Shown here: positions 6,201 through 38,025 of the stretch, one piece after another | Layout: each line of letters opens with the position of its first letter | How positions within the stretch are numbered: the first letter of the stretch is position 1 | NCBI GenBank assembly: GCA_027485645.1 | Contig: JAIXQR010000001.1 | Coordinates: forward strand, 363,632 to 427,631 | Direction of reading: 5' to 3' | DNA: 64,000 nucleotides | Source: a bacterium | GTDB lineage: Bacteria > Armatimonadota > Fimbriimonadia > Fimbriimonadales > Fimbriimonadaceae | The notes under the pieces: model-generated | Databases searched by the model: none | What the model was told of the DNA's origin: nothing | Seen by the model: the letters and a program-made list of their open reading frames with translations, nothing else | Program-made: the position numbers and the translations under genes

Positions 6201-6940
6201 TCTTCTTCGTACGCATCCTCGCCGATGTCGACGTTCACGTAGGTTTCTTGAACATCGTCCAAATCGTCCAGGGCGTCAAGCAGTTTGAGCAACTTGATTT
6301 GGTCTTCCGGCGAAAGCTCGGTCTTGTTTGTTGCAAGGTACGTGAGCTGAACTTCGGTGGTCTTCACGCCAGCAGCTTCCAGTGCGGTGTTTACGCGGTG
6401 TAGATCTTCCATCGCGGTCGTCACCGTGAAGGTGTCTTCGTCAAGCTGAACGTCGTCCGCTCCGGCTTCGAGGGCGATGAGGGTGAAGTCGTCTTCCTCG
6501 TAGTTGCCCTTGGCGACTTGAATCTGGCCAACGTATTTGAACTGCCAGCTAACCGCGCCGTTTTCGGCCATGTTGCCGCCATTCTTGTTGAATGCCGTTC
6601 GAACGTCGCCTACGGTTCGGTTTCGGTTTTCCGAGTAGCACTGCAGGATGATTCCAGCCCCACCGGGTCCGTAGCCTTCGTAAATGATTTCTTCGTAGTT
6701 GGCCCCTTCTACCGCGCCTGAACCTCGGTCAATGGCGCGCTTGATGTTCTCGTTCGGCAAGGAAACCGACTTCGCCTTTTCAACCGCAACTCGAAGTCGG
6801 GGGTTCATCGCGACGTCGCCGCCCCCAAGTCGTGCAGCAACGATGATTTCTCGGGCGAGCTTGGTAAAGAGCTTTCCGCGAATCGCGTCCTGCTTACCTT
6901 TTCGGAGCCGAATGTTCTTCCATTTACTATGGCCAGCCAT
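6197..6940 (-). CDS. yebC: YebC/PmpR family protein
   Basis: MAGHSKWKNI, 'YEGYGPGG', 'DLDDVQETY'. Confidence 0.97.
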   Translation of the reverse strand: MAGHSKWKNIRLRKGKQDAIRGKLFTKLAREIIVAARLGGGDVAMNPRLRVAVEKAKSVSLPNENIKRAIDRGSGAVEGANYEEIIYEGYGPGGAGIILQCYSENRNRTVGDVRTAFNKNGGNMAENGAVSWQFKYVGQIQVAKGNYEEDDFTLIALEAGADDVQLDEDTFTVTTAMEDLHRVNTALEAAGVKTTEVQLTYLATNKTELSPEDQIKLLKLLDALDDLDDVQETYVNVDIGEDAYEED

Positions 6941-6971
6941 GGGTAACCGCTATTTTGGCATGGCTGGCCAT
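6929..6971. repeat. Perfect 13-bp inverted repeat whose stem contains the yebC start codon
   Basis: ATGGCCAGCCATG (6929-6941) and CATGGCTGGCCAT (6959-6971), 17-nt loop. Confidence 0.9.
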
Positions 6972-6977
6972 TCTCGG

Positions 6978-7574
6978 CTACTCAGCCGAAAGTTTGAGTT
7001 TCAGTCCGGCCAGAAAAGACTTCACGACAAAGAGGGAAGTCTGGTCCGGGCTGTGCCCGCCCGCGTGCCAGTGGACCTGAACATCGGCCCCAGCCGTCGC
7101 ATACTGGGTCGCGAGGGTTTGGGCATTCATCCGTGGAACCATCGGGTCGTGCTCGCCGCACACCATCAGGATTGGCATTCCAGTCAGCTCAGGCATCGGT
7201 TCTTCGGCGAACGGAACCATCGGTGCTAGCAGAACTGCCGCCGAGAACAACTCCGGATGTCGGATGACCAGCGCAGACGCCATGTTGGCCCCGTTTGAGA
7301 ATCCGAGCACGATTCGTTTTTCTGTCGGGAGCGTCGTCTGTACGAAGTCAGCCAACTGATCGGCGCGGAAGCGAAGGTTATCTTCATCGAAAACACCTTC
7401 CGCAAAGCGGCGGAACCACCGGTTCTGCCCGTTCTCCGGCTCTTCGCCGCGTACCGAAAGGTGACCGACCCCGGTTACCAACGACTGGCTGAAGGCAAGG
7501 AACTCTCGTTCATTACCACCCGTGCCGTGAAGCGCTACGACGGTCGGATTTCCGGTGACGTGTTGATGGATCAT
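6978..7574 (-). CDS. Alpha/beta hydrolase (phospholipase/carboxylesterase, MhqD-like)
   Basis: 'LHGTGG', nucleophile 'GFSNGA', Asp in 'GEHDP', His in 'GGHS'; coupled to a VOC dioxygenase gene as in mhq-type operons. Confidence 0.88.
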   Translation of the reverse strand: MIHQHVTGNPTVVALHGTGGNEREFLAFSQSLVTGVGHLSVRGEEPENGQNRWFRRFAEGVFDEDNLRFRADQLADFVQTTLPTEKRIVLGFSNGANMASALVIRHPELFSAAVLLAPMVPFAEEPMPELTGMPILMVCGEHDPMVPRMNAQTLATQYATAGADVQVHWHAGGHSPDQTSLFVVKSFLAGLKLKLSAE

Positions 7575-8641: not shown

Positions 8642-9688
8642 GTGTCCGTGTTTGAAATTTCCAACGAATACTTGCAGCGAACCTTGGTTGACCTGCTCAA
8701 CACGCCGAGTCCGACGGGAGATACCGACTATGCCATTGGCTTCCTGCAAGGGGAACTGGATGTCCTAGGCGTTCCGTGTCAGCGAACGGCAAAGGGCGCG
8801 TTGGTCGCGCAGTTGGAAGGCCATGACAGTAACCGGCCCCGCGCGCTTTCGGCACACATTGACACTCTTGGAGCAATGGTCGCAGAGATCAAGCCGAACG
8901 GACGCATTCGTCTCGCGGCAGTTGGCGGCGTCATGTGGCCAACCGTCGAGAGCGAGGGTGTCTACATCGCGACGCGATCCGGCCGGCGCATTCGAGGCTC
9001 GATCGTTCTTGAGAACGGTGCCGCCCATGTGAATCGCGACGCTCGGACCAAAGAACGAACCGCCGACACCCTGGAAGTCCGACTCGACGAACGCACGACC
9101 CGAGCGGACGAAACCCGATTGCTCGGAATTGAAGTTGGGGACTTCGTCTACTTCGACACCCGAACCGAAGTGTCTGACTCCGGATTCATTCGTTCCCGAT
9201 TCCTGGATGACAAGGCCTGCGTGGCCTGTCTCTTGGCCGCAGTTCAAGCGCTGAAGTCGATTGACATCACGCCCGGTCAGCGCACGTCGCTCCTGTTCTC
9301 AAATTTCGAAGAAGTCGGGCACGGCGGTATGGACGGGCTGCCTGATGATCTAGCCGAGTACGTGGTGCTCGATATGGCCTGCATTGGCAAAGGACTTCAG
9401 GGCGATGAATTCCACTGCTCGCTTTGCGTTGCCGACTCAAGCGGCCCATATAGTCGAAACCTTGGCGACAAGCTCCGCGGGCTCGCCAGCCAGCGCGGAA
9501 TCGACCTCGTCGCCGATGTCTATCCGTACTACGGATCGGACGGAAGCGCGTACTGGCGCTCGGGCGGACGGGCCGAAGTCGCGTTGATCGGCCCCGGCGT
9601 AGACACGAGCCACGGCTACGAGCGAACCCACATTGAGGCTCTGCGCGATACCGCCGAAGTCATTGCGGCGTATCTGATTTCGGATTAA
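8642..9688 (+). CDS. M42 family metallopeptidase
   Basis: Metal-ligand motifs 'AHIDT', 'LDDK', 'EEVG', 'LDM' and 'SHGYER'. Confidence 0.92.
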   Translation: MSVFEISNEYLQRTLVDLLNTPSPTGDTDYAIGFLQGELDVLGVPCQRTAKGALVAQLEGHDSNRPRALSAHIDTLGAMVAEIKPNGRIRLAAVGGVMWPTVESEGVYIATRSGRRIRGSIVLENGAAHVNRDARTKERTADTLEVRLDERTTRADETRLLGIEVGDFVYFDTRTEVSDSGFIRSRFLDDKACVACLLAAVQALKSIDITPGQRTSLLFSNFEEVGHGGMDGLPDDLAEYVVLDMACIGKGLQGDEFHCSLCVADSSGPYSRNLGDKLRGLASQRGIDLVADVYPYYGSDGSAYWRSGGRAEVALIGPGVDTSHGYERTHIEALRDTAEVIAAYLISD

Positions 9689-9966
9689 AGCAGCTCGATT
9701 CGCCCGGCGAGTTCGAAGTCGAGCTCGCTGATGCCATCAACATCGTGCGTGTTGAGGCTCACCCGGACTTTGCGGTAGCCGATGAAAAGGTCGGGATGGT
9801 GGTCAAGCTTGTCCGCCATGAACCCGACGGTTGAAGCAAACGCCAGTCCGGTTGCGTAGGACTCGAAGGCGTACTCCTTGGTGATCTGCCCGTTTTGGTA
9901 GCTCCAGCCCGGAAGTCCGCTGAGCCCACCGGCGATTTGCTCGTCCGAAAGTTTGGTTCGTGCCAT
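9685..9966 (-). CDS. phhB: 4a-hydroxytetrahydrobiopterin dehydratase (pterin carbinolamine dehydratase)
   Basis: 'DHHPD' and 'NTHDVDGISELDFELA'. Confidence 0.9.
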   Translation of the reverse strand: MARTKLSDEQIAGGLSGLPGWSYQNGQITKEYAFESYATGLAFASTVGFMADKLDHHPDLFIGYRKVRVSLNTHDVDGISELDFELAGRIELL

Positions 9967-24519: not shown

Positions 24520-25527
24520 TTGGAAATCGTTAATAGAATGGCATTGCTTAATGAAGAATCATCAGAAGGCGGTCCCAAACTTTCCGATGTATTGTTCGAT
24601 GCGCCTAGCGAAGCCACCTCGTTAGCAACCCTTGGTTCGAACTACGAAGCCATCGAGGCAGGCCGCCTTTTTTCTGCTGGGCACGAGAGCTTTCTCGCCA
24701 TCGTCGGCCCAAGCGGCTGGGGGAAGAGCCACCTTCTCGACGTCCTCGCAAAGCGAATGGATATCGCCGAATCCAACTTGGTGCGCCGTTGGACGGCAAG
24801 TGATTACTTGCACTCGCCGAGCAAGCACGATCCTGCGTTGCCGCTATTGCTGGACGACGTTCAGGAAGTTCTTGCCAGGACCAAAGCGCGAATTGAACTT
24901 CGAGTGGTCCTGGAGCGGCGCGTCCGTGCTGGCCGGCCAACCGCGCTCTCCTTCACGATGGATGAGCCGAACCGAACGCTCCGGTCGTTCTTGCCCAACT
25001 CTCGCAGCTGGTCGATCGCAAAGATTCGCGAAGCCAATGCTCACGAGCGGATCACTTTGATCGAACGGATGGGCGCGGCGGAAGGGCTGTACATGTCTGG
25101 CTCGCTTGTTAAAATCATCGCGCACCACATGAACGGCGACGGACGAACTCTAGCTGGTGCACTCAAGCGGCTGCGGTTGTCTGGCCATGCCTGGCTCGAC
25201 GCCCGTGCAACGCTACGGGCGCTTGGCGTTCTGGATCCGTACTTTGCCGACAACCCAACTTGGGACCTGCGAATGCGCATTGCGAAAGTCGGCGGACAGC
25301 TGCTGGACCGGCTTGGCGGAATCGAGGCGTTTGACCTGGCGGTTTACACGATGTTGTATGAGGCTGGCTTGGCCGAATCGGGAATCTCCGGAACCCTCGG
25401 GCTGAAGCCGGTCGAGGTTTATCAGCGCGCTTCTCGCGTGCAGCAGGAGATCTGCATCAATCCCGACGTCCACCGAGCTGTGCTCCACTTCGTGGGTCTT
25501 GTGGTGGATTCGTTCACTTTTCCCTAA
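24520..25527 (+). CDS. DnaA/Hda-family AAA+ protein (N-terminally truncated DnaA paralog)
   Basis: Walker A GPSGWGKSHLL, Walker B LLLDDVQ, 'R.L.GAL.RL', degenerate domain-IV-like helix-turn-helix; no domain I/II. Confidence 0.75.
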   Translation: MEIVNRMALLNEESSEGGPKLSDVLFDAPSEATSLATLGSNYEAIEAGRLFSAGHESFLAIVGPSGWGKSHLLDVLAKRMDIAESNLVRRWTASDYLHSPSKHDPALPLLLDDVQEVLARTKARIELRVVLERRVRAGRPTALSFTMDEPNRTLRSFLPNSRSWSIAKIREANAHERITLIERMGAAEGLYMSGSLVKIIAHHMNGDGRTLAGALKRLRLSGHAWLDARATLRALGVLDPYFADNPTWDLRMRIAKVGGQLLDRLGGIEAFDLAVYTMLYEAGLAESGISGTLGLKPVEVYQRASRVQQEICINPDVHRAVLHFVGLVVDSFTFP

Positions 25528-25564
25528 AAATTTAAGGAAAAACGGTTGGTTTTCCTCGACAATA

Positions 25565-25582
25565 TGATATAACCGTATATCA
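25565..25582. promoter_or_regulatory. Palindromic operator candidate, LacI module 1
   Basis: TGATATA-ACCG-TATATCA, a perfect 7-4-7 inverted repeat ending 3 nt before the LacI ATG; recurs at 27868. Confidence 0.75.
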
Positions 25583-25585
25583 GGA

Positions 25586-26620
25586 ATGTCGAAGAAGACT
25601 TCGGTTACGATGCGTGACGTGGCGTTAGCTGCAGGAGTGAGTCCTATGTCGGTCTCAAAGGTCCTCCATGGTCGCGGCGTTAACGTTCGGGTCAGTGAGG
25701 GCACGGCGGCCACAATTCGCAAAATCGCGCTGGAGCTGGACTATCGTCCAAACGTGCTCGCAAGAAATCTCCGAAGTCGCAGCACTCGGACCATCGGTCT
25801 TGTCCTAGAAACTGTCCCTGATCTCACCGGAACCGTTCGATATTTCGCCGAACTTCTCGATGGCGTCACTCGGATGGCCTTCCAGAGCGACTATAGCCTG
25901 ACGCTTTGCAACAGTCTTATCGGTGCCGGGACCGTTAGCCAGATGAGCGATGGACGCTTTGATGGGCTGCTTTGGTGCCGAGGAAACTACGGCGACGATT
26001 TGGTCCAAGCCGCAAGAAACGCGAACTTGCCGGTCGTGATCATGCACCAGCCAGACCGGATTCTTAATCCGGATATTTCGTGCATTTCTTGGGACAACAT
26101 CGGCGCGGCGAAGCTTGCCACGGAGCACTTGATCGGCCTAGGCCATCGAAAGATCGCCTTTATGGTTCCGACGCGATCGATGAAGAACCCAGAAGCTTGC
26201 CTCCGCAAGGCGTCTTTCTTCGAAACCGCGGCGCAACATGGTGTTGAAGCCGGCGAAGCTGACGTACTCAATTGGTCCGATGACGCTTCCGAGTTTGGCG
26301 AGTGGTGGAAAGCAAATCGCGACTACACCGCAATCATGTCTTGGAACGAGTCCTGCGCCATCGCCATTCTGGGGCAAGCTCGTCTCCATGGTGTCAGCGT
26401 GCCGGAGCAGCTTTCGGTCCTTGGCTTCGACAGCTCCAGCCAGTGCGACCTCACGCAGCCCCGCCTCACTTGTGTACACCAACCGCTCAGTGAGATGGCA
26501 ACTAAGGCCACCGAGATTTTAATCCACCGGATCGAATCGAAAGAAGCAGATCCACAGCACTTCGTCTATCCCAGTAGCCTGGACATCCGGGAATCTACTG
26601 CACGTCCGCCTCAAGGTTGA
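25586..26620 (+). CDS. LacI family transcriptional regulator (copy 1)
   Basis: HTH 'TMRDVALAAGVSPMSVSKVL', hinge 'LDYRPNVLARNL', 'VLGFDSS', 'LTCVHQP'. Confidence 0.96.
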   Translation: MSKKTSVTMRDVALAAGVSPMSVSKVLHGRGVNVRVSEGTAATIRKIALELDYRPNVLARNLRSRSTRTIGLVLETVPDLTGTVRYFAELLDGVTRMAFQSDYSLTLCNSLIGAGTVSQMSDGRFDGLLWCRGNYGDDLVQAARNANLPVVIMHQPDRILNPDISCISWDNIGAAKLATEHLIGLGHRKIAFMVPTRSMKNPEACLRKASFFETAAQHGVEAGEADVLNWSDDASEFGEWWKANRDYTAIMSWNESCAIAILGQARLHGVSVPEQLSVLGFDSSSQCDLTQPRLTCVHQPLSEMATKATEILIHRIESKEADPQHFVYPSSLDIRESTARPPQG

Positions 26621-26629
26621 GGACATTGC

Positions 26630-27457
26630 ATGAAAAAAGCATTCACACTTATCGAACTTCTCGTTGTCATCGCGATCATCGCGATCCTCGCAGCTATCCT
26701 CTTCCCAGTCTTCGCTCAGGCCAAGGCTGCTGCTAAGAAGACGCAGTCGCTCTCGAACGCTAAGCAGACCGGTCTCGCCGCTCTCATTTACTCTGGCGAC
26801 TATGACGACGTATTTCCTTTCGGTTCCGGTAACGACTGGTACTACCCGAACGGATCGTGGATCTGGTCCACCCAGCCATACATCAAGAACTACCCAATGC
26901 TCTTGGACCCATCGGACCCGAAGAGCAAGGCTTTCTGGCCAACTTGGTTCCCAGCAAACGCTCTCTCGATCTCTTACGCGGCTAACTCCGTGATCAAGTG
27001 GAACGGCACCGGCAACCAGGTCGTTGGTGTTATCAACATGCAGCAGACGTGGTACGGCGGTCCTTACACGGTCAGCCAGACGCAGGTTAACCGAGTTGCT
27101 GACACGGTTATGTTCGCGTCGCACTACTACGGAAACAACATCTGGGGCATGGGCGGTCTCATCACCGGCGCTCCATTCTGGGACTTCGCTGGCCCAACGA
27201 CTCACCCACAGGGTACGCCTCCTCCAGGCGCACCAGCTCGAACCGGTGGCAACTACACCGTTACGGGCATGAACGGCAGCACGGTCATCGTTAACAAGAA
27301 CGACCGATTCGGCTCCGTTGCTGTTTACGGCGACCAGGGAATCTTCGTATTCACCGACGGCCACGCCAAGACGATGAATCCGGTGGCGACGAACCCAGCT
27401 GAGCAGTATCAGCCAAACCTCGACACCCAGAACATGTGGAACTACACCCGAGATTGA
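26630..27457 (+). CDS. Prepilin-type N-terminal cleavage/methylation protein with H-X9-DG-like C-terminus (DUF1559-like)
   Basis: MKKA|[28 protein letters not shown]; C-terminal 'Y-x9-DGHAK'. Confidence 0.92.
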
Positions 27458-27699
27458 TGTTCAAGTTGGACTCAATTCGTAAGAACGCATTTCTTGCCCT
27501 TTCTGCGGTCGCCCTCGTGGCGGCCGTAGGCTGCGGTTCAGAATCTGGAGCTACGGCTGCAGAGGAAGCAACCTTCAAGGACGGCAAGAAGCCAGTAGTC
27601 ACGATTCCACCTGACGCAAACAAGCCACCAGCAAACTTCAAGAGCAGTCTTGATATGGGTGGCACCCCAGGCGGACCACCTCCTGGACAATCGAAGTAA
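27457..27699 (+). CDS. Small Pro/Gly-rich lipoprotein
   Basis: ATG overlaps the pilin TGA; lipobox AVGC; low-complexity mature part. Confidence 0.75.
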   Translation: MFKLDSIRKNAFLALSAVALVAAVGCGSESGATAAEEATFKDGKKPVVTIPPDANKPPANFKSSLDMGGTPGGPPPGQSK

Positions 27700-27726
27700 C
27701 TTCGGTTATCTCGTAAAAGGCATTGA

Positions 27727-27760
27727 AAGCCTCCGCCAGTTTGGCGGAGGCTTCTTTTTT
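27727..27760 (+). terminator. Intrinsic terminator ending module 1
   Basis: 12-bp stem AAGCCTCCGCCA/TGGCGGAGGCTT plus T6. Confidence 0.9.
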
Positions 27761-27867
27761 GTGCCGTAGGTTCTAAGTATCTTGGAAGACACCTGAAAAG
27801 CGACATTGCCAAAAAGTTCGCCGATTTTCAGATTTTTCAAAAAAAGTCTTGGCAAACCTTGCCGACT

Positions 27868-27885
27868 TAATATAACCTTATATCA
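27868..27885. promoter_or_regulatory. Palindromic operator candidate, LacI module 2
   Basis: TAATATA-ACCT-TATATCA (16/18 identical to site 1), same spacing to ATG; TTGGCA-16-TATAAC promoter overlaps it. Confidence 0.72.
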
Positions 27886-27888
27886 GCA

Positions 27889-28923
27889 ATGTCAAAGAGG
27901 ACATCTGTTACCTTGCGTGATGTCGCACTTGCGGCTGGAGTGAGTCCGATGTCGGTCTCGAAAGTGCTCCACGGCCGTGGCGTAAACGTCCGGATCGGCG
28001 CCGAGACGGCCGAAACTATTCGTCGAGTTGCAAAAGAACTCGAGTACCGGCCGAACGTCATCGCGCGCAACCTGCGATCGAAGCAGACCAACACCATCGG
28101 CCTCGTCTTCGACGAAACTCCGTTGTTCGGAGGAACCACCCGCTACTTCTCTGACCTCATGAACGGGGTTACCCGGGCCGCATTCTCCGAAGGCTACAGC
28201 GTGATGCTGTGTGACTCGCTGATCGGACCTAAAGACAGCAATCGACTTTCAGACGGCCGCTTCGACGGCCTGCTTTGGGTTCGAATGACGGCCGGACAAC
28301 AGATTCTTCAGGATGCATTCCGCCTGAACCTGCCGAGCCTGCTGTTCGCCGATGCTTCCCTCGTAACCGATCCTTCGACCTCCTTTATCGGCTGGGACAA
28401 CCAAGGAGCGGCCCGACAAGTCGCGGAACATTTATATTCTCTCGGTCATCGGAAAGTTGGATTCGTGATCGCTGAACACTCTATCGTCAATCCAGAAGCT
28501 CGCGTTCGAGCAGGACACTTCCGGGAGTCCTGGCTCCGCTGCGGCGGCAGCAACGATCAGGTCGAGACCCTGATTTGGGCGGCCAACGCGTCGGATTTTG
28601 AAGATTGGTACCCCAACCGCAAGGGTGTCACCGCTTTAGTTTCTTGGAGCGAGTCGGGTGCGATTTCCATTCTTGAGCGCGCCCGGGCATGTAACGTTCA
28701 AGTACCGGCCGATCTTTCCGTTGTTGGCTTTGACTCCTCCTCCCTTTGCGATCTCACCCAACCCAAGCTCACCGCCGCCCGCCAACCGGTTGAAGAGATG
28801 GCCGCAAAAGCCACTGAGTTTTTAATCCGCATGATCCATTCGTCAGATACGGATCCGTTGCACTTCGTCTTCCCCAGTAGCCTGGATATCCGGGAATCTA
28901 CTGCACGTCCGCCTCAACGCTGA
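27889..28923 (+). CDS. LacI family transcriptional regulator (copy 2)
   Basis: Same HTH 'RDVALAAGVSPMSVSKVLHGRGVNVR'; 'VVGFDSS', 'LTAARQP'. Confidence 0.96.
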   Translation: MSKRTSVTLRDVALAAGVSPMSVSKVLHGRGVNVRIGAETAETIRRVAKELEYRPNVIARNLRSKQTNTIGLVFDETPLFGGTTRYFSDLMNGVTRAAFSEGYSVMLCDSLIGPKDSNRLSDGRFDGLLWVRMTAGQQILQDAFRLNLPSLLFADASLVTDPSTSFIGWDNQGAARQVAEHLYSLGHRKVGFVIAEHSIVNPEARVRAGHFRESWLRCGGSNDQVETLIWAANASDFEDWYPNRKGVTALVSWSESGAISILERARACNVQVPADLSVVGFDSSSLCDLTQPKLTAARQPVEEMAAKATEFLIRMIHSSDTDPLHFVFPSSLDIRESTARPPQR

Positions 28924-28932
28924 GAGCACTGC

Positions 28933-29808
28933 ATGAAAAAAGCATTTACACTCATTGAACTTCTTGTAGTTATCGCGATCATTGCGATCCTTGCCGCTAT
29001 CCTCTTCCCAGTCTTCGCTCAGGCGAAGGAAGCTGCGAAGAAGACTCAGGACCTTTCCAACGCCAAGCAACACTCGCTCGGCATCATCTTGTACGCGACC
29101 GACAACGACGACACGTTCGCTCGTCAGGTCTACAAGCGACCAAACTCGGCTGTTTGGGGATGGAACACGCCATTCACTTGGCGAGAAGCCGTTCACCCAT
29201 ACATCAAGAGCGGTCAGCGAACCTACGCAGACGGTACCAACAGCATTCAGCTCGCGGAAGGCGGTCTTTGGGACACGCCAGCCAAGGTTGGAGCTCGAGG
29301 CGTTTACAACTCGAACCGAATCCTGATGCCAGGACACTGCTACTGGAACGCTACGGCCTCGACTTGGATGTGCGACTCCTCCGATGATGGAATTCGCAAC
29401 AACAACCCGGTCATGCCATCGGTCTCCGCGACCTCGCTGGACGCACCAGCGCAGATCACGACCGAGTGGACGGTCGGTGTCAATCCAGACTGGAACGCTT
29501 CCGGCGACTTCGCTGAAGTCTCTTGGTGGTGGTTCGGTGGAGCGCAGTTCCCACCAGTCTTCACGGGTACGACCTCGGGACAGAAGTGGGATGCGGACTC
29601 TAACGTGTTTCCAAACTGGTCCATGCCACGCTACCGCTACGCGGGTGGCTTGAACAACTCCTTCGCAGACGGACACGCAAAGTTTGTCAAGAAGGGCGCG
29701 TTCAACTGGTGCAGCATGGTCTACGTGAAGGGAATCACGTCGGATTACGGCGAGAACTGGGATTGGCTGTTCACGCCTGGAAACGCTTGCGCCGCTTTCG
29801 CACGATAA
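28933..29808 (+). CDS. Prepilin-type N-terminal cleavage/methylation protein with H-X9-DG-like C-terminus
   Basis: MKKA|FTLIE...; 'RYRYAGGLNNSFADGHAK'; Trp-rich variable middle. Confidence 0.92.
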   Translation: MKKAFTLIELLVVIAIIAILAAILFPVFAQAKEAAKKTQDLSNAKQHSLGIILYATDNDDTFARQVYKRPNSAVWGWNTPFTWREAVHPYIKSGQRTYADGTNSIQLAEGGLWDTPAKVGARGVYNSNRILMPGHCYWNATASTWMCDSSDDGIRNNNPVMPSVSATSLDAPAQITTEWTVGVNPDWNASGDFAEVSWWWFGGAQFPPVFTGTTSGQKWDADSNVFPNWSMPRYRYAGGLNNSFADGHAKFVKKGAFNWCSMVYVKGITSDYGENWDWLFTPGNACAAFAR

Positions 29809-29812
29809 TCGG

Positions 29813-30061
29813 ATGAAGAATCTTCTTCCGGTTCTTGTCGGGATCTTGCTCGTAGGCTGTTCTGGCTCGGACAATGGAGACGTCGAGGCAGCTAACAAAG
29901 CTGCCGCCGAAGCTCCAAAGTCAGCCGACCAGCTGCCTGCGGACATGTCTCCGGAAGCACGCAGAAGCGCCGAGGCTGCCATGAAGCAGTCTCAGGCAAT
30001 GCAACAGCAGATGGACTCTCAGGCTGCTGCAATGAAGAAAGCCCGCGAGAATTCGCGGTAG
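29813..30061 (+). CDS. Small Ala/Gln-rich lipoprotein
   Basis: Lipobox LVGC; 4 nt after the pilin stop. Confidence 0.78.
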   Translation: MKNLLPVLVGILLVGCSGSDNGDVEAANKAAAEAPKSADQLPADMSPEARRSAEAAMKQSQAMQQQMDSQAAAMKKARENSR

Positions 30062-30068
30062 AACGATC

Positions 30069-30091
30069 GGGTCACGCCTTCCGCGTGACCC
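30069..30091. other. 9-bp GC-rich hairpin without a U-tract inside the operon
   Basis: GGGTCACGC-cttcc-GCGTGACCC followed by AAAAA. Confidence 0.6.
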
Positions 30092-30100
30092 AAAAACCTC

Positions 30101-30487
30101 ATGAGAAAATTCCTCATTTTGGGTGCCGTTGCACTCGTCGCAATTGGCTGCCAGCCTTCTGACGATTACGTTGAGCCGGAGCGAAAGGTCGTTAGCTTTG
30201 AGGGCGAAACAGACAAACGCCTGGTTGGAGATTGGAAAACCTCCGATGGAAAGGGCGATTACAGCTTCAAGGAAGATGGAAACTTTTCTTTGAAGTCGAA
30301 GATTGGAACTCCCAGCGGCGTCATTGACTCAACGGTGAAAGGTCAATGGAAAGTTAAGAACGAACAACTTTTGATCAAGGATCAGAACGGCAACGTCGTT
30401 CCTTACAGTCTCAAAGTTGACGGGAAGTCAGTTACCCTTGCGCTCACCGGGTCACTTAAAAACGAAGTTACGCTGGTACGGAAGTAA
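30101..30487 (+). CDS. Hypothetical beta-rich lipoprotein (lipocalin-like)
   Basis: Lipobox AIGC; 'LVGDWKT...Y.FKEDG.F...GQWKVKNEQL'. Confidence 0.7.
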   Translation: MRKFLILGAVALVAIGCQPSDDYVEPERKVVSFEGETDKRLVGDWKTSDGKGDYSFKEDGNFSLKSKIGTPSGVIDSTVKGQWKVKNEQLLIKDQNGNVVPYSLKVDGKSVTLALTGSLKNEVTLVRK

Positions 30488-30494
30488 AAAGATT

Positions 30495-30524
30495 TAGGCT
30501 CCTCCAGTGGAGGAGCCTATTTTT
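30495..30524. terminator. Intrinsic (probably bidirectional) terminator between convergent genes
   Basis: 11-bp stem TAGGCTCCTCC/GGAGGAGCCTA, T-run after it and A-run shortly before it. Confidence 0.85.
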
Positions 30525-31922: not shown

Positions 31923-33080
31923 TTATCGAACTTGGATTCGATTTTCGGTGAGAGCTTGGAAGACCTTCACCGGAATGAAGACGATTCCGTTTCGGTCTAC
32001 CGAAATCGTCGACAGGCTCTGTCGGTCACCGTTGATGCGGAACCAAATATTGCCCTTGTCGTACTGAGCCTCTCGGCCGCGCCAGCGAATCCACATTCTT
32101 TTGCCGTCGTCGGTTCGCTCGAAGCTCGCTCCGATTCGGCTGGCCAATGCTCGAGCTGGCACAAGCAAAGTGGACCCTTTCACGATTGGGCGCTCATCGC
32201 CTAGGAAAGTAACGCTCCGGCCATCGTAATACAGCTCCTGAGAGTTGTTTGAATATTCGTCGTTGTAGCTGCCGCCGCTACCGCCAAACAGCCCACCGCC
32301 GCTGCCTCCGCTCGTGGAAAGGTCTCGACCCGCCAGAGCTTGGAAGATTTCGATGGGAACGAACAGAACGCCGTCTCGTTCCTGACTCGAGGTTCGGAGA
32401 GATCGTCGTTCGTCGTTCAGGCGGAAGTAGTTCGCACCCTTCACGTATTCAACTCGGTCGTAGTCCTTCCAAACCGAGATCGTGCGTCCGTCGCTGGAAC
32501 GATCGGTGTTGTAGCCCAGTCGGTCGCCCATGGCTCGGAATGGAACCTGAACCGTACCGTTACTTCGGAATGGCCGTTCGTTTCCGGAGAAGGAAAGCGG
32601 TCGTCCGTTGTAATAGACCGATGCGGAACCGTTGTTCGAGTTGTTATTGCCGCTGCCACCGAATAGGCCGCCGTCGCTACCGGAATTCCCGTTGTTGCGG
32701 TACGAAACCGCGCCACCCGTGAGCAGTTCGAAGAACCGAACCGGAATGAAAAGCACATCGTTCCGTTCGCGAGCCGGTCGATTGATCTTGTTGATCCGGC
32801 CCTCGAGAATCATCTCGTTCGTTCCCTTGCGGTACTGGCCAATCTTGTTGCGCCAAGTCACCCGAATGGTTTCTCCAGATTCGGATCGCTCGAATCGTGC
32901 CCCGATTCGGTCCGACATCGCGCGGAACGGCACGAAGGTCACGTTTGATTCGACGAACGAGCGCTCATCTCCAGAGAACGTGACTCGATCTCCGTTGTAG
33001 TAGACGTTCTGGGCAAAGCTTGAAGCAGTCAGCGCACCAGCAAAAACCATCACAGCGGTGTGAATTCCAAATTTCTTCAT
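31923..33080 (-). CDS. Secreted protein with three copper amine oxidase N-terminal (stalk) domains
   Basis: Three repeats 'YY.G..V.F.G.ERP.......VP.R.....G...R.......I.....Y.KG........R.......R.G.LFIP...F..L' with G/S/N linkers. Confidence 0.8.
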   Translation of the reverse strand: MKKFGIHTAVMVFAGALTASSFAQNVYYNGDRVTFSGDERSFVESNVTFVPFRAMSDRIGARFERSESGETIRVTWRNKIGQYRKGTNEMILEGRINKINRPARERNDVLFIPVRFFELLTGGAVSYRNNGNSGSDGGLFGGSGNNNSNNGSASVYYNGRPLSFSGNERPFRSNGTVQVPFRAMGDRLGYNTDRSSDGRTISVWKDYDRVEYVKGANYFRLNDERRSLRTSSQERDGVLFVPIEIFQALAGRDLSTSGGSGGGLFGGSGGSYNDEYSNNSQELYYDGRSVTFLGDERPIVKGSTLLVPARALASRIGASFERTDDGKRMWIRWRGREAQYDKGNIWFRINGDRQSLSTISVDRNGIVFIPVKVFQALTENRIQVR

Positions 33081-33112: not shown

Positions 33113-33811
33113 TTACTCCCGGTCAAACCAACGATCCATCGGGGTTTGATTGGTGTAGAACTGAGACAGTTTCTTTTTCGAAGCGTGAGTATCGAGCCAA
33201 GTCACGGTCGCTTGCTCAAAGTGGACCGGGTCGGGGCGTCCCCAGCAGTCGGCGGTTGGCCAACTCGGCGGCAGCATCAGCTTGCCGTCATCACCACAAA
33301 AACTGGTCTCCGGAAACAGGCTGCTTCTTGCCGAGGAGAAGAGTACGGACTCACTCGGGGCGGCAAAGTCCGACGGGCTAAATGCCGTGTGGTCGTTGGC
33401 GTTAGAAAAGTCGATTGAGAACGTGGTGATGTAGCCCACGTTGTAGCCAAAGTGGCTCGTGATCGCGCCGGTGGTGTCGGTCTCCTTCACCTGGCTGCCG
33501 GGGCAGTGCCAAATCTGCTTATTCTTCACGTACGGATCGGTGAGATCGTGCCAGAGCAGGAAGGCGGTATCGGTGCCATACGCGGCCAGCGCAAATCGGT
33601 CGTCGTAATCCTGCTGGTAAAGCACCATTGCCAGCCCCAGGTTTCGCTCGTTCGACATGCACTGCGTCTGCTTAGCACTCTGTTTCGCCTGGGCAAAAAC
33701 GGGAAACAGGATCGCCGCAAGGATGGCGATGATGGCAATGACAACGAGGAGTTCGATCAAAGTGAACGCCCCGGATCGCTTGATCCGAGGCGTTGGTGCG
33801 CTGAGTATCAC
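33113..33811 (-). CDS. Prepilin-type N-terminal cleavage/methylation protein (DUF1559-like), last gene of the sugar ABC operon
   Basis: 'GA|[13 protein letters not shown]...[12 protein letters not shown]...Y.QDYD'; 'H-x9-DTH' variant. Confidence 0.9.
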
Positions 33812-33814
33812 TTC

Positions 33815-34822
33815 TTAATAGACGCTGTCTGGGAAGTAGTAGTTCTTCGCGTTCTCAGGAGTTACGAGTTCAACGTCAAGCAGGATGTGCTTTGGCATGA
33901 ACTGGCTTCGCTCTTTGGCCTTTCCGTCTCGGAGCGATGCTGCCGCAAGGTGCATTCCAACCGCGATCATCGACGGTGGGTAGGTGATGTCGGCAGGGAA
34001 CAGTGGGTCCTTGTCCATCACTCGCTTGATGACGTCCTTCATGCCGGCGCCGCCGAGCATCCAAACGTTCTTGCGATTTGCTTCCTTGAGGGCCTGTTCG
34101 GCGCCAAGGGCCATGTCATCGTCGCTCGCCCAAATCGCATCGATTTCGGCGTGCTTCAGCAACATGCTCTGGGTGACGTTGAGGGCCTTTTCTTTGCTCC
34201 AGTTTCCGGCCTGCGAGTCGAGAATGCTGATTCCTGGGAATCGCTTCATCACTTCGCGGAATCCGGCAACGCGGTCGCTGTTGACCGTGCTTGGGATGCC
34301 TTCGAGAATGACGATCTTGCCCTTGCCGCCAAGCTTTTCGGCCATGAATTCGGCGGACTTTCGACCAAAGGCCTTGTTGTCGCCTTCAACAAAAATGTCT
34401 GCAACTGGCTCCAAGAAGCCGCGGTCAACGTTCACGAGGAAGATTCCTTTCTCGTGGACCTGCTTTGCAACCGGCGTTAGCGGAGCGGACTCGGTGGCCA
34501 GGACAACCATTCCGTCCAAGCCTTCCAGCATCATCGTTTCGATGTCCTTGATCTGCTTGTCTGGGTTCTGAGCGGTCGCAATCTTCCACTCAACATCTGG
34601 GTAGAGAGCCTTGGCTTGCTCGGCCCAATAGCCAACGCCCGCCGTCCAGCCATGGTCGGCGGCTGGAATCGAAACGCCGATCTTCAGCTTCTTGCCGGTT
34701 GATGCTGCTGGAGCCTCTGTTCCGCCGGTCGAAGAAGCCGCGTCTTTGGTGGCCGTTGGGGTGCACCCGAAAAGCGCGCCGAGAAGGCCGGCTGCCACAA
34801 GAATTTTTGTTGTTAACTTCAT
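33815..34822 (-). CDS. Monosaccharide ABC transporter substrate-binding lipoprotein (RbsB-like)
   Basis: Lipobox LFGC; 'VNVDR', 'GDNKAFGR', 'DDDMALGA'. Confidence 0.9.
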   Translation of the reverse strand: MKLTTKILVAAGLLGALFGCTPTATKDAASSTGGTEAPAASTGKKLKIGVSIPAADHGWTAGVGYWAEQAKALYPDVEWKIATAQNPDKQIKDIETMMLEGLDGMVVLATESAPLTPVAKQVHEKGIFLVNVDRGFLEPVADIFVEGDNKAFGRKSAEFMAEKLGGKGKIVILEGIPSTVNSDRVAGFREVMKRFPGISILDSQAGNWSKEKALNVTQSMLLKHAEIDAIWASDDDMALGAEQALKEANRKNVWMLGGAGMKDVIKRVMDKDPLFPADITYPPSMIAVGMHLAAASLRDGKAKERSQFMPKHILLDVELVTPENAKNYYFPDSVY

Positions 34823-34833
34823 AGTTAGTTCCG

Positions 34834-35835
34834 TTAGTCGCTTCGACCGCGCTGAATGAGCACGGCAAGCAAGATGATAACTCCCTTGACGAATCCTTGC
34901 CAGTAGACGGATACGTCAGAGGCGGTGAGAATGTTCGTGATGATGCCGAGCATGAGAACGCCAAACACCGTTCCGGTGATGCGGGCATAGCCGCCACTCA
35001 TGCGCGCCCCGCCAATCACGACGGCGGCGATAGCATCCAACTCGGCGTTGTTGCCCAACTGGCCCGAGGTGACGCTATTCATTCGCGAACTGACGCAGAG
35101 GGAAGCGATTCCCGCACAAAGCCCGACGATCACGTACGTCCACAGCTTGATTCGATTCGTGTTGATGGCCGAATACTTGGCAGCCAACTCGTTCGCGCCG
35201 ACGGCGATGCAGTAACGGCCAAACGGCGTTCGGTTCAGCACAAAGCCAATGACTCCGGCCATCACGAAGAAGATGAAAATCGGCCACTGGACAACCAGCG
35301 GTGTGGTGACCCAGAACGGCAAGGCCGGAATGGTCAATCCGTCTTGGCCCAGCGCGGCAAAAGTGCTTCCGAACGCGCGAACTTCGCCGCCATCCGCAAA
35401 GGCTTGGGCCATCGAGCGGAATCCGACAAGCCCAGCCAGGGTGACGATGAAGGGGGCAATTTTGCCGTGCGTCACGAGCAGGCCGTTAATGAATCCCACA
35501 ACTCCGCCGATGGCAATACAGCTGGCAGCGGCAATCCATATTCCTTTGGGATCGGCCGCATTGGTTCCGAGGGCTTGGTTCATCCACTGAACGCCGAGCA
35601 CCCCGGCAAGGGCCATGAGCGAACCGACACTCAGGTCAATTCCGCCTGCGACAATGACGAGGGTCATGCCGAGGGCGAGAATTCCGACACTCGCGTTCTG
35701 GTTCAGGATGTTCCGAATCGACTCTGGCTGAAGGAAGATTCCCGGCTTCCAGAGCGCGCTGCCGATAAACAGGATGAGGAAGGCGAACAAGGCGCCATTG
35801 CGCTCAACCGTAGATTTCATGGACTGGGTGTTCAT
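34834..35835 (-). CDS. Monosaccharide ABC transporter permease (RbsC-like)
   Basis: 'GGIDLSVGS', 'PFIVTL', 'FGRYCIAVGAN', 'ELDAIAAVVIGG'. Confidence 0.93.
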   Translation of the reverse strand: MNTQSMKSTVERNGALFAFLILFIGSALWKPGIFLQPESIRNILNQNASVGILALGMTLVIVAGGIDLSVGSLMALAGVLGVQWMNQALGTNAADPKGIWIAAASCIAIGGVVGFINGLLVTHGKIAPFIVTLAGLVGFRSMAQAFADGGEVRAFGSTFAALGQDGLTIPALPFWVTTPLVVQWPIFIFFVMAGVIGFVLNRTPFGRYCIAVGANELAAKYSAINTNRIKLWTYVIVGLCAGIASLCVSSRMNSVTSGQLGNNAELDAIAAVVIGGARMSGGYARITGTVFGVLMLGIITNILTASDVSVYWQGFVKGVIILLAVLIQRGRSD

Positions 35836-35836
35836 C

Positions 35837-37318
35837 TTAGGCTTGCTTCTCCAACCCTGCGGCGGAGGTCATGATCGTTTTTTCGTTGAGCTGTTCGCCG
35901 GCTAGTTCGGCTTCGCATGTTCCATTTCGAAGAACAAGAACGCGATGACAAAGCCCGATGACTTCGGGCAATTCGCTAGATACCAAAATCACGGCAAGAC
36001 CTTGCTTGGCCAGATCCACGATCAGGTTGTAGATTTCTCGCTTGGCGCCGACGTCAACACCGCGAGTCGGTTCGTCGAAGATGATAACCTTTGGATCGCA
36101 CTGAAGCCATTTCGCGATGGCAACTTTCTGCTGGTTTCCGCCGCTGAGCGACTTGACCGGAGCGTGGATGTTGGAGGTCTTGATCCCGAGCTTCTCCACC
36201 CAACTACTGGCAATCGAATCGACTTGAGCGTCGTTCACGCGGAAGCGATTGGCATCGGCCAAAGTTGGCATGCTCGCGTTTTCTGAAATGCGCAACGTGA
36301 GGTGAAGGCCGCGACCTTTGCGGTCTTCGCTGACGTACACCAGCCCACGCTTTCGGCGGGCGCTTGGGGACAGTTTATCGATGGCCTCGCCCGCGAGCTT
36401 CACCTGTCCGGACGACCGCCGGAATCCAGCAAGGGCCTCGGAAATCTCGGTTCGGCCAGCACCAATAAGGCCCGCCATGCCCAAAATTTCGCCCGCTCGA
36501 AGCTGAAAACTAACCGGTTGATGGTGCGGAGTCGTGCTGAGATCGGTGACTTCGAGCACAATCTGGTCCGAAGTTCGCTCCCCGACCGGCGGAAACACTT
36601 CGCCAAGTTCGCGGCCAACCATACTTTCCGCCAGAATCTGCGGCGTCGCGGTTTTCGGGTCAAGCTCGCCCACAAACTCGCCATCTCGCAAAACCGAGAT
36701 CCGGTCAGAAATCTCGAGAATCTCCGGCAGCAAGTGCGAGATGTAGATCACGGAGACGTTCCGCGATTTGAGGTCGCGAATGAGAGCGAAAAGACTTCGA
36801 ACTTCTGGGCCGGTCAAGACCGCCGTCGGCTCGTCCATGATCAAGTACTTCGCATCGTAGCTCAGAGATTTCGCGATTTCGACAAGTTGCTTGTCGGCGA
36901 TGCTGAGTCCCCGAACGCTGGCATCCGGGCCGAATTTTGCGTTCACCTTGGTCAAGAGACCGGCACATTCTTCGCGCATTTTGCCGTAGTCGATCGCCAA
37001 GCCCTTGCGCGGCTCGCGGCCAAGGAAAACGTTTTCGGCCACCGAAAGGTCATCTACAAGATTGAGCTCTTGGTGGATCATGACGATGCCACGATCAATC
37101 GCTGATTGGACACCTTTCAGGTTGAGTGCCGTGCCATCGAGCCGAACCTCACCAACCGTCGGCTGCTCCAATCCGCTGAGCAGTTTCATCAGCGTGCTTT
37201 TGCCTGCGCCGTTCTCGCCAATGAGGCCATGCACCTCCCCTGGACGAAATTGGAGGCTCACGCCGCGAAGGGCGATGACCGTGCCAAACTCCTTGCGTAC
37301 ACCGACGACGTCAAGCAT
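35837..37318 (-). CDS. Monosaccharide ABC transporter ATP-binding protein (RbsA-like)
   Basis: GENGAGKST, 'MDEPT', second domain 'SGGNQQK..DEPTRGVDVGAK'; start set at MLDVV. Confidence 0.94.
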   Translation of the reverse strand: MLDVVGVRKEFGTVIALRGVSLQFRPGEVHGLIGENGAGKSTLMKLLSGLEQPTVGEVRLDGTALNLKGVQSAIDRGIVMIHQELNLVDDLSVAENVFLGREPRKGLAIDYGKMREECAGLLTKVNAKFGPDASVRGLSIADKQLVEIAKSLSYDAKYLIMDEPTAVLTGPEVRSLFALIRDLKSRNVSVIYISHLLPEILEISDRISVLRDGEFVGELDPKTATPQILAESMVGRELGEVFPPVGERTSDQIVLEVTDLSTTPHHQPVSFQLRAGEILGMAGLIGAGRTEISEALAGFRRSSGQVKLAGEAIDKLSPSARRKRGLVYVSEDRKGRGLHLTLRISENASMPTLADANRFRVNDAQVDSIASSWVEKLGIKTSNIHAPVKSLSGGNQQKVAIAKWLQCDPKVIIFDEPTRGVDVGAKREIYNLIVDLAKQGLAVILVSSELPEVIGLCHRVLVLRNGTCEAELAGEQLNEKTIMTSAAGLEKQA

Positions 37319-37368
37319 TCCCGTGATGTTGGCGAATTCGTGGACAAAATTGCTAAGGGATCGGAACA

Positions 37369-38025
37369 ATGAACGTCCTGATTTTTACTAAAACCACTGG
37401 CTATCGCCACTCCAGCATCGAATTCGCCGTAGCCCGATTGGTTGAAGAACTCGGAGACCTTGGCATTAATGCCGATCACTCCGAGGACGAGCAACTCTTC
37501 CGTCCCGACTCGCTCTCGAAGTACGAGGGTGTTGTTTGGCTAAACACCACCGGAGAGGTACTTGACGACGAAGGCCGCGCGGCCTTTGAATCGTTCGTCC
37601 GGGCAGGGGGCGCGTGGATCGGCGTGCACGGCGCAACGATTACCGAGCCGAATTGGCCGTTTTATCAGGAGCTTTCTGGTGCTTACTTCGCGGGGCATCC
37701 GGAAGGCGAGCACGAAGCCACCGTCCAGATTGAGCTTTTGAGCCATCCAACCATGGCGGGGATCCCGTTTCTTTGGAAGTTCAAGGACGAGTGGTACGAC
37801 TTCGTTGAGAACCCACGGTCAAAGAAGGTCACGGTTCTGGCGACCGTCGATGAAAAGACGTATCCCGCCGGTGGCATGGGCGAAGATCACCCGATCATTT
37901 GGTGCCACGAAAAGTTTGCCGGCAAAGCTTGGTACACCGGCTTGGGCCACCTAGCGGAAGCCTACGAGGATGAGTTCTTTATGAACCACCTCATCCTAGG
38001 CATCCGCTGGGCCATCGACGTTTAA
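37369..38025 (+). CDS. ThuA domain protein
   Basis: 'FTKTTGYRHSSI', 'GVHGA', 'DEWY', 'HPIIWC', 'YTGLGH'. Confidence 0.9.
   Translation: MNVLIFTKTTGYRHSSIEFAVARLVEELGDLGINADHSEDEQLFRPDSLSKYEGVVWLNTTGEVLDDEGRAAFESFVRAGGAWIGVHGATITEPNWPFYQELSGAYFAGHPEGEHEATVQIELLSHPTMAGIPFLWKFKDEWYDFVENPRSKKVTVLATVDEKTYPAGGMGEDHPIIWCHEKFAGKAWYTGLGHLAEAYEDEFFMNHLILGIRWAIDV

Follow-up and report, generated by a model that had tools for sequence, protein, structure and literature searches.

Why would a bacterium place a single pilin-like envelope protein, together with a very small lipoprotein, under a LacI-type repressor of its own? The question is posed by positions 25,565–30,487 of a 64,000-nucleotide stretch (the window) of contig JAIXQR010000001.1 from a Fimbriimonadaceae bacterium of the phylum Armatimonadota (3.19-Mb genome, 57% GC, 98.4% complete; G000), where two co-directional paralogous gene sets lie at an exact 2,303-bp offset between a gene for a DnaA-like AAA+ protein and the convergent metK gene. 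An original prediction, made from the DNA letters, had described two modules here, A and B, each composed of an operator, a LacI regulator, a pilin-like protein and a small lipoprotein, and every one of these elements is present (Table 1). It had also closed each module with a strong terminator, which is true of A; in B the terminator follows a fourth gene, for a DUF5640 lipoprotein. Terminators with a T run stand at the module ends only, and spacing within the modules is tight: 9 nt separate LacI from pilin in both, and the pilin–lipoprotein gap is 4 nt in B and −1 nt in A, where the pilin stop and the lipoprotein ATG share one base (TGATG) in a translationally coupled arrangement. Here we find that the LacI–pilin–lipoprotein triplet is a genuine module: it recurs, it is conserved, and it is no accident of this one locus. 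We give an even chance to the reading that such modules respond to an effector by producing envelope components, each specific to a substrate, which type IV filament machinery would put to use in glycan capture, uptake or secretion. We found no published description of this kind of module.

The genome-wide census proposed with the original prediction was positive. The genome encodes 12 regulators with LacI-type sensor domains, of which 11 have a LacI helix-turn-helix (HTH) and one is a GntR hybrid. For eight of them the next gene downstream, at −25 to +10 nt, is a pilin-like gene; at a chance level of 2% per gene, this adjacency has P ~ 1e-11. A ninth heads a LacI–GH13/CBM48–pilin–lipoprotein operon. 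For the second link of the triplet, a pilin-like gene immediately precedes 16 of the 36 small lipobox genes in the gene set of this analysis, where 0.7 would be expected (P ~ 2e-17). The pilin-like genes themselves number 57 at a length of at least 180 amino acids, and about 50 of them share an identical 30-residue helix, as expected if all paralogues fit one machine or filament core.

Conservation in relatives, on which the prediction had also staked the module, was found at several distances. Among related genomes a pilin-like gene adjoins a LacI homologue in 16 of 20 loci, among them loci from two further families of the order and a tandem pair beside metK in genome G008. Across a sample of 30 Armatimonadota genomes, the pilin-like gene is directly downstream in 12 of 30 LacI loci, and in the type strain Fimbriimonas ginsengisoli one comes after 15 of the 24 LacI genes. 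Module B is syntenic in that strain (major facilitator superfamily (MFS) transporter, LacI, pilin, 80-amino-acid lipoprotein and 140-amino-acid DUF5640-like lipoprotein) and also in a Capsulimonadales metagenome-assembled genome. In both, the lipoprotein B orthologues that come after the pilin B orthologues are recognisably related in sequence (DQL..M.PEAR), indicating that the lipoprotein travels with its pilin subfamily. A pilin A-like gene of F. ginsengisoli sits in a run of LacI, pilin, a 95-amino-acid product and GH44, beside GH2. Among 65 pilin-like genes sampled across phyla for this helix, mostly from Verrucomicrobiota, Planctomycetota and Lentisphaerota, LacI is directly upstream in only two, both from Armatimonadota, with a divergent LacI in two loci from Planctomycetes–Verrucomicrobia–Chlamydiae (PVC) genomes. 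We therefore dropped the idea of a LacI-first pairing in every phylum that has the helix. About five PVC loci in that sample have larger downstream lipoproteins, of ~125–150 amino acids.

Comparison with the sister genome G014 showed purifying selection on five of the six triplet genes, with ratios of non-synonymous to synonymous substitution rates (dN/dS) of 0.02–0.12; for LacI-B the synonymous rate is saturated and no ratio is computable. The LacI-A orthologue is 96% identical (dN/dS 0.02), and the values are 0.12 for pilin A, 0.12 for lipoprotein A, 0.04 for pilin B and 0.07 for lipoprotein B, with 0.08 for the DUF5640 lipoprotein, so the small open reading frames are real genes. Antisense frames at 26,519–27,364 and 28,843–29,982 (minus strand) were ruled out as genes: coding scores, homologues and dN/dS all favour the plus-strand genes. 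A recent duplication was likewise ruled out, because the best-conserved module DNA is only 70–77% identical between A and B and the tandem pair by metK also exists in G008, where the LacI is ~50% identical. As a separate observation, dS of pilin A against G014 is 0.38, far below the 0.8–1.9 of its neighbours, possible explanations being strong selection on codons (high expression) and a recent gene conversion.

Both regulators are clear members of the LacI/GalR family by profile search, with PF00356 scores of 45.5 bits for LacI-A and 44.1 bits for LacI-B (cut-off 27) and PF13377 effector-domain scores of 108.6 and 91.7 bits. As had been noticed from the sequence, their ligand domains have diverged and their DNA-binding domains have not: the two proteins are 57% identical overall and ~52% identical over residues 61–344, with a single difference among the 23 positions of residues 8–30 in the HTH. 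Their operators are two mismatches apart, and no further copy exists in the 3.19-Mb genome at up to three mismatches. Since this operator stands at two LacI starts only, each operon appears to be a closed, autoregulated unit, and no enzyme or transporter would be co-regulated through it. Its position over the −10 box suggests repression by promoter occlusion, and its closeness to the ATG implies a nearly leaderless LacI message. The orthologous modules of G014 and G008 likewise have GATATA-N4-TATATC in front of them, and each of the other LacI paralogues of the genome has a different palindrome of its own. In G014 pilin B is preceded by an operator with exactly the sequence of operator A, the LacI-B gene behind that module B operator has been cut down to a short remnant (9,254–9,845 of G014:C1:2368000-2383000), and an 81%-identical copy follows the DUF5640 gene (6,291–7,358 of the same region). 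Near-identical recognition helices and operators, combined with diverged sensors, suggest that each LacI probably binds both operators and cross-regulates both operons, in which case expression would depend on both effectors.

The pilin-like proteins carry the class III signal MKKA/FTLIE (the slash marks the predicted cleavage site) with Glu at +5, and the prepilin motif is recognised in both by PF07963 (30.4 bits in A, 30.2 in B; cut-off 21.2) and TIGR02532 (31.8 and 31.5 bits; cut-off 16.3). In A the long α1 helix is followed by a Trp/Asn/Tyr-rich head and the motif Y233-x9-D243-G-H245; B has the same N terminus and the Y-x9-DGH motif, and adds a C-terminal extension with invariant Cys260 and Cys286. 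The shared helix and motif had been read correctly from the sequence, and the middles, taken then to be unrelated, turn out to be diverged. BLASTP finds only the first ~90 residues and a C-terminal DGHAK in common, but an alignment of their profiles, one built from 42 homologues and the other from 45, extends over 241 columns, and the AlphaFold2 (AF2) models (predicted local distance difference test scores of 91.4 for A and 91.7 for B) follow one plan, with a helix at residues 7–57, then β-strands, and DGH in the last hairpin. Pilin A has 59 homologues, all of Armatimonadota type, and pilin B has 135 across Armatimonadota. The heads of the pilin-like proteins of this genome are ~1.9-fold enriched in Trp, Asn and Tyr. 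An impression that the two pilin genes favour T-ending codons proved right for Ala (GCT fractions of 0.57 and 0.31, compared with 0.11–0.19 in neighbouring genes) and for Gly (GGT) and wrong for Ser; across the genome, pilin-like genes show a further preference for CCA and an avoidance of GGG.

Membership in the DUF1559/H-X9-DG families, which the prediction had assumed, did not hold up at the curated cut-offs. Against DUF1559 (PF07596; cut-off 23.3) pilin A scores 22.0 bits over positions 2–60 of the 268-position profile only and pilin B has no match, and against H-X9-DG (TIGR04294; cut-off 19) pilin B scores 17.3 bits and pilin A has no match. Only five of the pilin-like paralogues of the genome pass the PF07596 gathering score. 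In A and B the motif reads Tyr-x9-Asp-Gly-His, and the homologue P0048 has His at its first position. As neither scores up to these cut-offs, the two proteins are best described as DUF1559/H-X9-DG-like, a term of resemblance only.

All three module lipoproteins have a lipobox (AAVG/C, LLVG/C and AIG/C, respectively) and are predicted to be lipidated. Lipoprotein A, with a low-complexity mature part of ~55 residues, has no family match in Pfam and NCBIfam profile scans. The mature part of lipoprotein B is rich in Ala, Gln and Lys and scores 24.9 bits against the Lpp/OprI alanine-zipper profile NF040598, under its cut-off of 43; lipoprotein A does not match this profile, and the likeness between A and B is confined to the signal peptide. 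The fourth product of module B reaches PF18692 at 28.7 bits (cut-off 28.5).

How might these parts work together? In the reading we favour, each LacI-type repressor would bind GATATA-N4-TATATC over the −10 box of its own promoter until a small-molecule effector, most likely a carbohydrate, releases it. Release would turn on the repressor, one pilin-like protein and one cognate mini-lipoprotein, to which module B would add its lipocalin-like DUF5640 lipoprotein. A single prepilin peptidase would cut the pilin-like protein at A/FTLIE, one of the type IV filament machines of the cell would then handle it, and the variable aromatic- and Asn-rich head would be the substrate-specific part, serving glycan capture, import or the secretion of glycan enzymes, in a bacterium without a detected TonB-dependent outer-membrane transporter. 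In this scheme we infer what the effector is, that the pilin-like protein is processed, built into a filament and able to bind glycans, and what the lipoprotein does.

The original prediction had paired a sugar sensor with a glycan-binding subunit, and the genomic context agrees with its carbohydrate side. Four other modules of this genome, with a LacI or GntR–PBP (periplasmic binding protein) regulator, a pilin and in some cases a lipoprotein, carry GH13/CBM48, PF10091, GH95 with GH44, and GH35. The GH2, GH44 and MFS genes beside the F. ginsengisoli homologues count on the same side. In the window itself, a third pilin-like gene (33,113–33,811, minus strand; 232 amino acids, H-x9-DTH motif) starts 3 nt after the stop codon of a sugar-binding protein gene, as the last member of an ATP-binding cassette (ABC) operon of ATPase, permease, sugar-binding protein and pilin-like protein (33,815–37,369 (−) upstream of it), an arrangement conserved in G014. 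Glycan binding by the heads found no such counterpart: comparison of both confident models with the PDB gave no carbohydrate-binding module (CBM), lectin, substrate-binding protein (SBP) or PBP-fold match, and a profile search of PDB sequences matched N-terminal pilin helices and nothing else. Directly downstream of the third pilin-like gene, at 31,923–33,080 (minus strand), lies a gene for a 385-amino-acid secreted protein made of three ~120-amino-acid repeats with Gly/Ser/Asn-rich linkers.

Coupling to an ABC operon would also suit a role in which no filament is involved, with the helix serving as an inner-membrane anchor only and the heads acting as periplasmic helpers that pass oligosaccharides to ABC or MFS importers. 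The MFS transporter beside the module B orthologue in F. ginsengisoli and the Pfam name of DUF1559, SBP_bac_10, point the same way, and pilins are normally inner-membrane residents before assembly. We regard this role as unlikely. The absence of PBP-fold similarity in either model speaks against it, a mere anchor needs no 30 identical residues, Glu5 among them, across ~50 paralogues and several phyla, and outer-membrane passage would stay unsolved in a genome that lacks a TonB-dependent receptor match.

Several observations weigh against glycan-related envelope components handled by filament machinery, the reading we favour. Neither regulator can be assigned to a sugar-specific class: the best NCBIfam equivalog match, the RbsR-like NF047341, gives 173 and 156 bits with a cut-off of 382, and members of the LacI family can also sense nucleobases or nucleosides. 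Modules A and B contain no enzyme or transporter gene and are flanked by the DnaA-like AAA+ gene and metK. Unrelated housekeeping genes adjoin most of the 57 pilin-like genes, so a single glycan-related role need not apply to the whole family; when the 90 operon neighbours of the full set are tallied by Pfam family, LacI is the sole recurrent one, and glycoside hydrolases (GH30, GH13, GH44, PF10091, GH95, GH35 and NamZ) occur as singletons. The notion that all 57 genes lie in glycan loci was dropped on this evidence. The residue at −1 of the cleavage site is Ala, with the canonical Gly absent. Ala occupies this position in 54 of the 66 motif-bearing genes of the genome, canonical short PilA-like genes included, so the local prepilin peptidase probably accepts it.

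Machinery able to process and handle such proteins is encoded in the genome: one prepilin peptidase (Peptidase_A24), four GspE/PilB-type and four PilT-type ATPases and three secretins. As a candidate machine for the 57 paralogues, the genome has a complete cluster of type IV filament genes at G000:C3:575050-607816. It begins with PilB-like, PilT-like and PilC-like genes, the sole prepilin peptidase gene and a pilin-like gene with a DUF1559-type helix, continues with three giant minor-pilin-like proteins (654, 745 and 1,060 amino acids) and two giant secreted proteins (1,587 and 2,315 amino acids), and ends in PilM/N/O-like genes and a secretin. Elsewhere, at G000:C4:95474-99354, seven tandem genes for short PilA-type pilins (130–143 amino acids), with near-identical N termini and variable C termini, lie beside a PilB-like ATPase and a secretin.

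A complete cluster resembling a type II secretion system (T2SS), with a GspG-like gene, is present as well (C1:531-542 kb), and it raises the prospect that the paralogues are secretion adaptors, that is, substrate-specific minor or tip pseudopilins co-made with the exo-enzymes they push out, A and B serving enzymes encoded elsewhere. The glycoside hydrolases that are co-operonic in four sister modules would fit such a role, as would weak N-terminal matches to the NCBIfam GspG/H/J profiles, and T2SS export of alginases has been suggested by the authors who described a pulG-like paralogue beside them in Verruconatronum alginivorum (PMC13274419). For A and B, the operator that occurs nowhere else leaves no enzyme co-regulated. 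Scores against the major pseudopilin profile GspG (TIGR01710), 26.0 and 26.3 bits over the N-terminal helix only, fall far under the cut-off of 88.85, known T2SS have one fixed set of minor pseudopilins, so that 57 adaptors would be unprecedented, and the cognate mini-lipoproteins go unexplained. We think a secretion-adaptor role unlikely.

How glycans would cross the outer membrane is a separate matter. Neither PF00593, the TonB-dependent receptor barrel, nor PF07715, Plug, had a match anywhere in the 98.4%-complete genome, and control genomes did match; a role like that of SusC/SusD would therefore fill a real gap. The genome without this receptor match carries many glycoside hydrolases. Like the SusC/SusD loci of Bacteroidota, the modules form many paralogous, presumably substrate-specific envelope pairs in which one partner is a lipoprotein, and each pair has a sensor, and in many cases glycoside hydrolases, of its own. 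Unlike those loci they have no TonB barrel or Plug match and no homology to them, and their regulators are of LacI type, not hybrid two-component systems or extracytoplasmic-function sigma/anti-sigma pairs. Set against SusD, the small lipoproteins fall short in size, with mature parts of 30–80 amino acids, and have no family match in general scans, in which no SusD-specific search was included. The likeness is a functional analogy at best. A broader proposal is that in Armatimonadota, and perhaps in the PVC phyla, a shared retractile type IV filament serves as a general glycan importer in place of SusC/SusD. Each sugar repressor would then induce its own interchangeable pilin-like receptor and a cognate outer-membrane mini-lipoprotein, and the filament would capture one particular polysaccharide and pull it through the secretin into the periplasm. 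We hold this extension to be improbable. In keeping with the reading we favour, dextran binds pili-like fibres in Planctomycetes (PMC5394234), and fibre-mediated uptake has been proposed (PMC5394234, PMC12673574).

Type IV pilus and competence machines offer a precedent for ligand capture by specialised pilins and for passage through a secretin, in the form of DNA-binding minor pilins and PilT retraction. The proteins studied here share with them, and with the T2SS pseudopilins GspH–K, the class III signal, Glu5 and the long α1 helix, and the peptidase, ATPases and secretins are encoded. They differ in heads twice the size of those of ordinary pilins and with no fold match, in the dozens of subunits under separate repressors, and in cargo, which would be glycans.

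The genome paper of F. ginsengisoli Gsoil 348 counted 79 PulG-like (COG2165) genes, which it ascribed to attachment pili and T2SS, and mentions neither LacI nor a pairing with lipoproteins (PMC4072686). These genes belong to the same family in the same class of organism, and the syntenic module B orthologue is found there. If that ascription applied here, A and B would be variable fimbrial subunits that serve adhesion, in attachment or the formation of biofilms, and respond to the metabolic state of the cell; they would have no part in glycan acquisition, and LacI would provide nutritional control of adhesion only. Fimbriimonas is indeed named for its fimbriae, and variable, aromatic-rich heads would be in keeping with adhesion. 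This is very unlikely in our estimation, given that canonical short PilA-type pilins exist separately (the seven tandem genes at C4:95-99 kb), that glycoside hydrolases are repeatedly co-operonic, and that one regulator for one pilin, with distinct operators, fits substrate-specific induction better.

Beyond Armatimonadota, the closest parallels are the DUF1559/H-X9-DG families of Planctomycetota and Verrucomicrobiota, which have the same helix, a conserved stretch after it, a C-terminal x9-DG(H) and dozens of paralogues; PVC genomes share the prepilin helix of A and B. In P. limnophila, DUF1559 is the largest paralogue group, with 68 genes of unknown function, two of them essential (PMC10632474). 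A and B differ from these families in scoring below the cut-offs, in matching ~60 of 268 DUF1559 profile positions and in having Tyr instead of His, and the PVC loci differ in turn in lacking a LacI gene directly upstream in the cross-phylum sample and in their longer downstream lipoproteins. Verruconatronum alginivorum offers a further parallel, in keeping with the reading we favour: one of its 67 pulG-like copies lies in an alginate-induced cluster, and another pseudopilin is over-expressed on alginate (PMC13274419). The resemblance consists in many paralogues with one inside a substrate-induced cluster of carbohydrate-active enzymes; the differences are that this organism belongs to another phylum, that no LacI-first operon or mini-lipoprotein is described and that the authors read their data as T2SS export (PMC13274419).

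In Planctomycetota, Verrucomicrobiota and Armatimonadota, few paralogue families of unknown function are as large as the prepilin-type DUF1559/H-X9-DG-like proteins, and papers have only counted them. In Armatimonadota, LacI-type sensors are often paired one to one with a pilin-like protein and a mini-lipoprotein, often near a glycoside hydrolase, and this pairing gives each such paralogue a defined regulator, an operator and a candidate substrate class. Its presence in F. ginsengisoli, a culturable type strain, opens the question of function to induction, knockout, binding and localisation experiments. The answer bears on how glycans pass the outer membrane in bacteria without a detectable TonB-dependent transporter and on the dextran-binding fibres of Planctomycetes.

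Table 1. Features of modules A and B, in coordinates of the 64,000-nucleotide window
Feature	Position	Strand	Remark
Promoter-like site A, TTGGTT-16 nt-TATAAC	25546-25582	+	read from DNA; putative promoter
Operator A TGATATAACCGTATATCA, 18-bp inverted repeat over −10 box	25565-25582	+	3 nt before LacI-A ATG
LacI-A, LacI/GalR-family repressor, 344 aa	25586-26620	+	PF00356 + PF13377
Pilin-like protein A, 275 aa	26630-27457	+	PF07963, TIGR02532
Mini-lipoprotein A, 80 aa	27457-27699	+	lipobox VAAVG/C
Module A intrinsic terminator, 12-bp stem, 8 GC pairs, T run	27727-27753	+	
Promoter-like site B, TTGGCA-16 nt-TATAAC	27849-27885	+	read from DNA; putative promoter
Operator B TAATATAACCTTATATCA over −10 box	27868-27885	+	3 nt before LacI-B ATG
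LacI-B, paralogous repressor, 344 aa	27889-28923	+	PF00356 + PF13377
Pilin-like protein B, 291 aa	28933-29808	+	PF07963
Mini-lipoprotein B, 82 aa	29813-30061	+	lipobox LLVG/C
Hairpin without T run after lipoprotein B	30069-30091		
DUF5640 lipoprotein, 128 aa, module B gene 4	30101-30487	+	PF18692
Bidirectional terminator with an 11-bp stem and a T run on each strand, serving module B and convergent metK	30495-30519		

Two features outside the modules are worth recording. Trp-halogenase-like genes accompany TonB-receptor carbohydrate loci in Proteobacteria, and in this genome two Trp-halogenase-like FAD proteins are encoded next to pilin-like genes (G000:C6:609794-611539 and G000:C3:681857-683557). 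The upstream neighbour of module A (24,520–25,527, plus strand) encodes the DnaA-like AAA+ protein, which has weak P-loop Pfam matches only; its G014 copy is 95% identical, with a dN/dS of 0.03.

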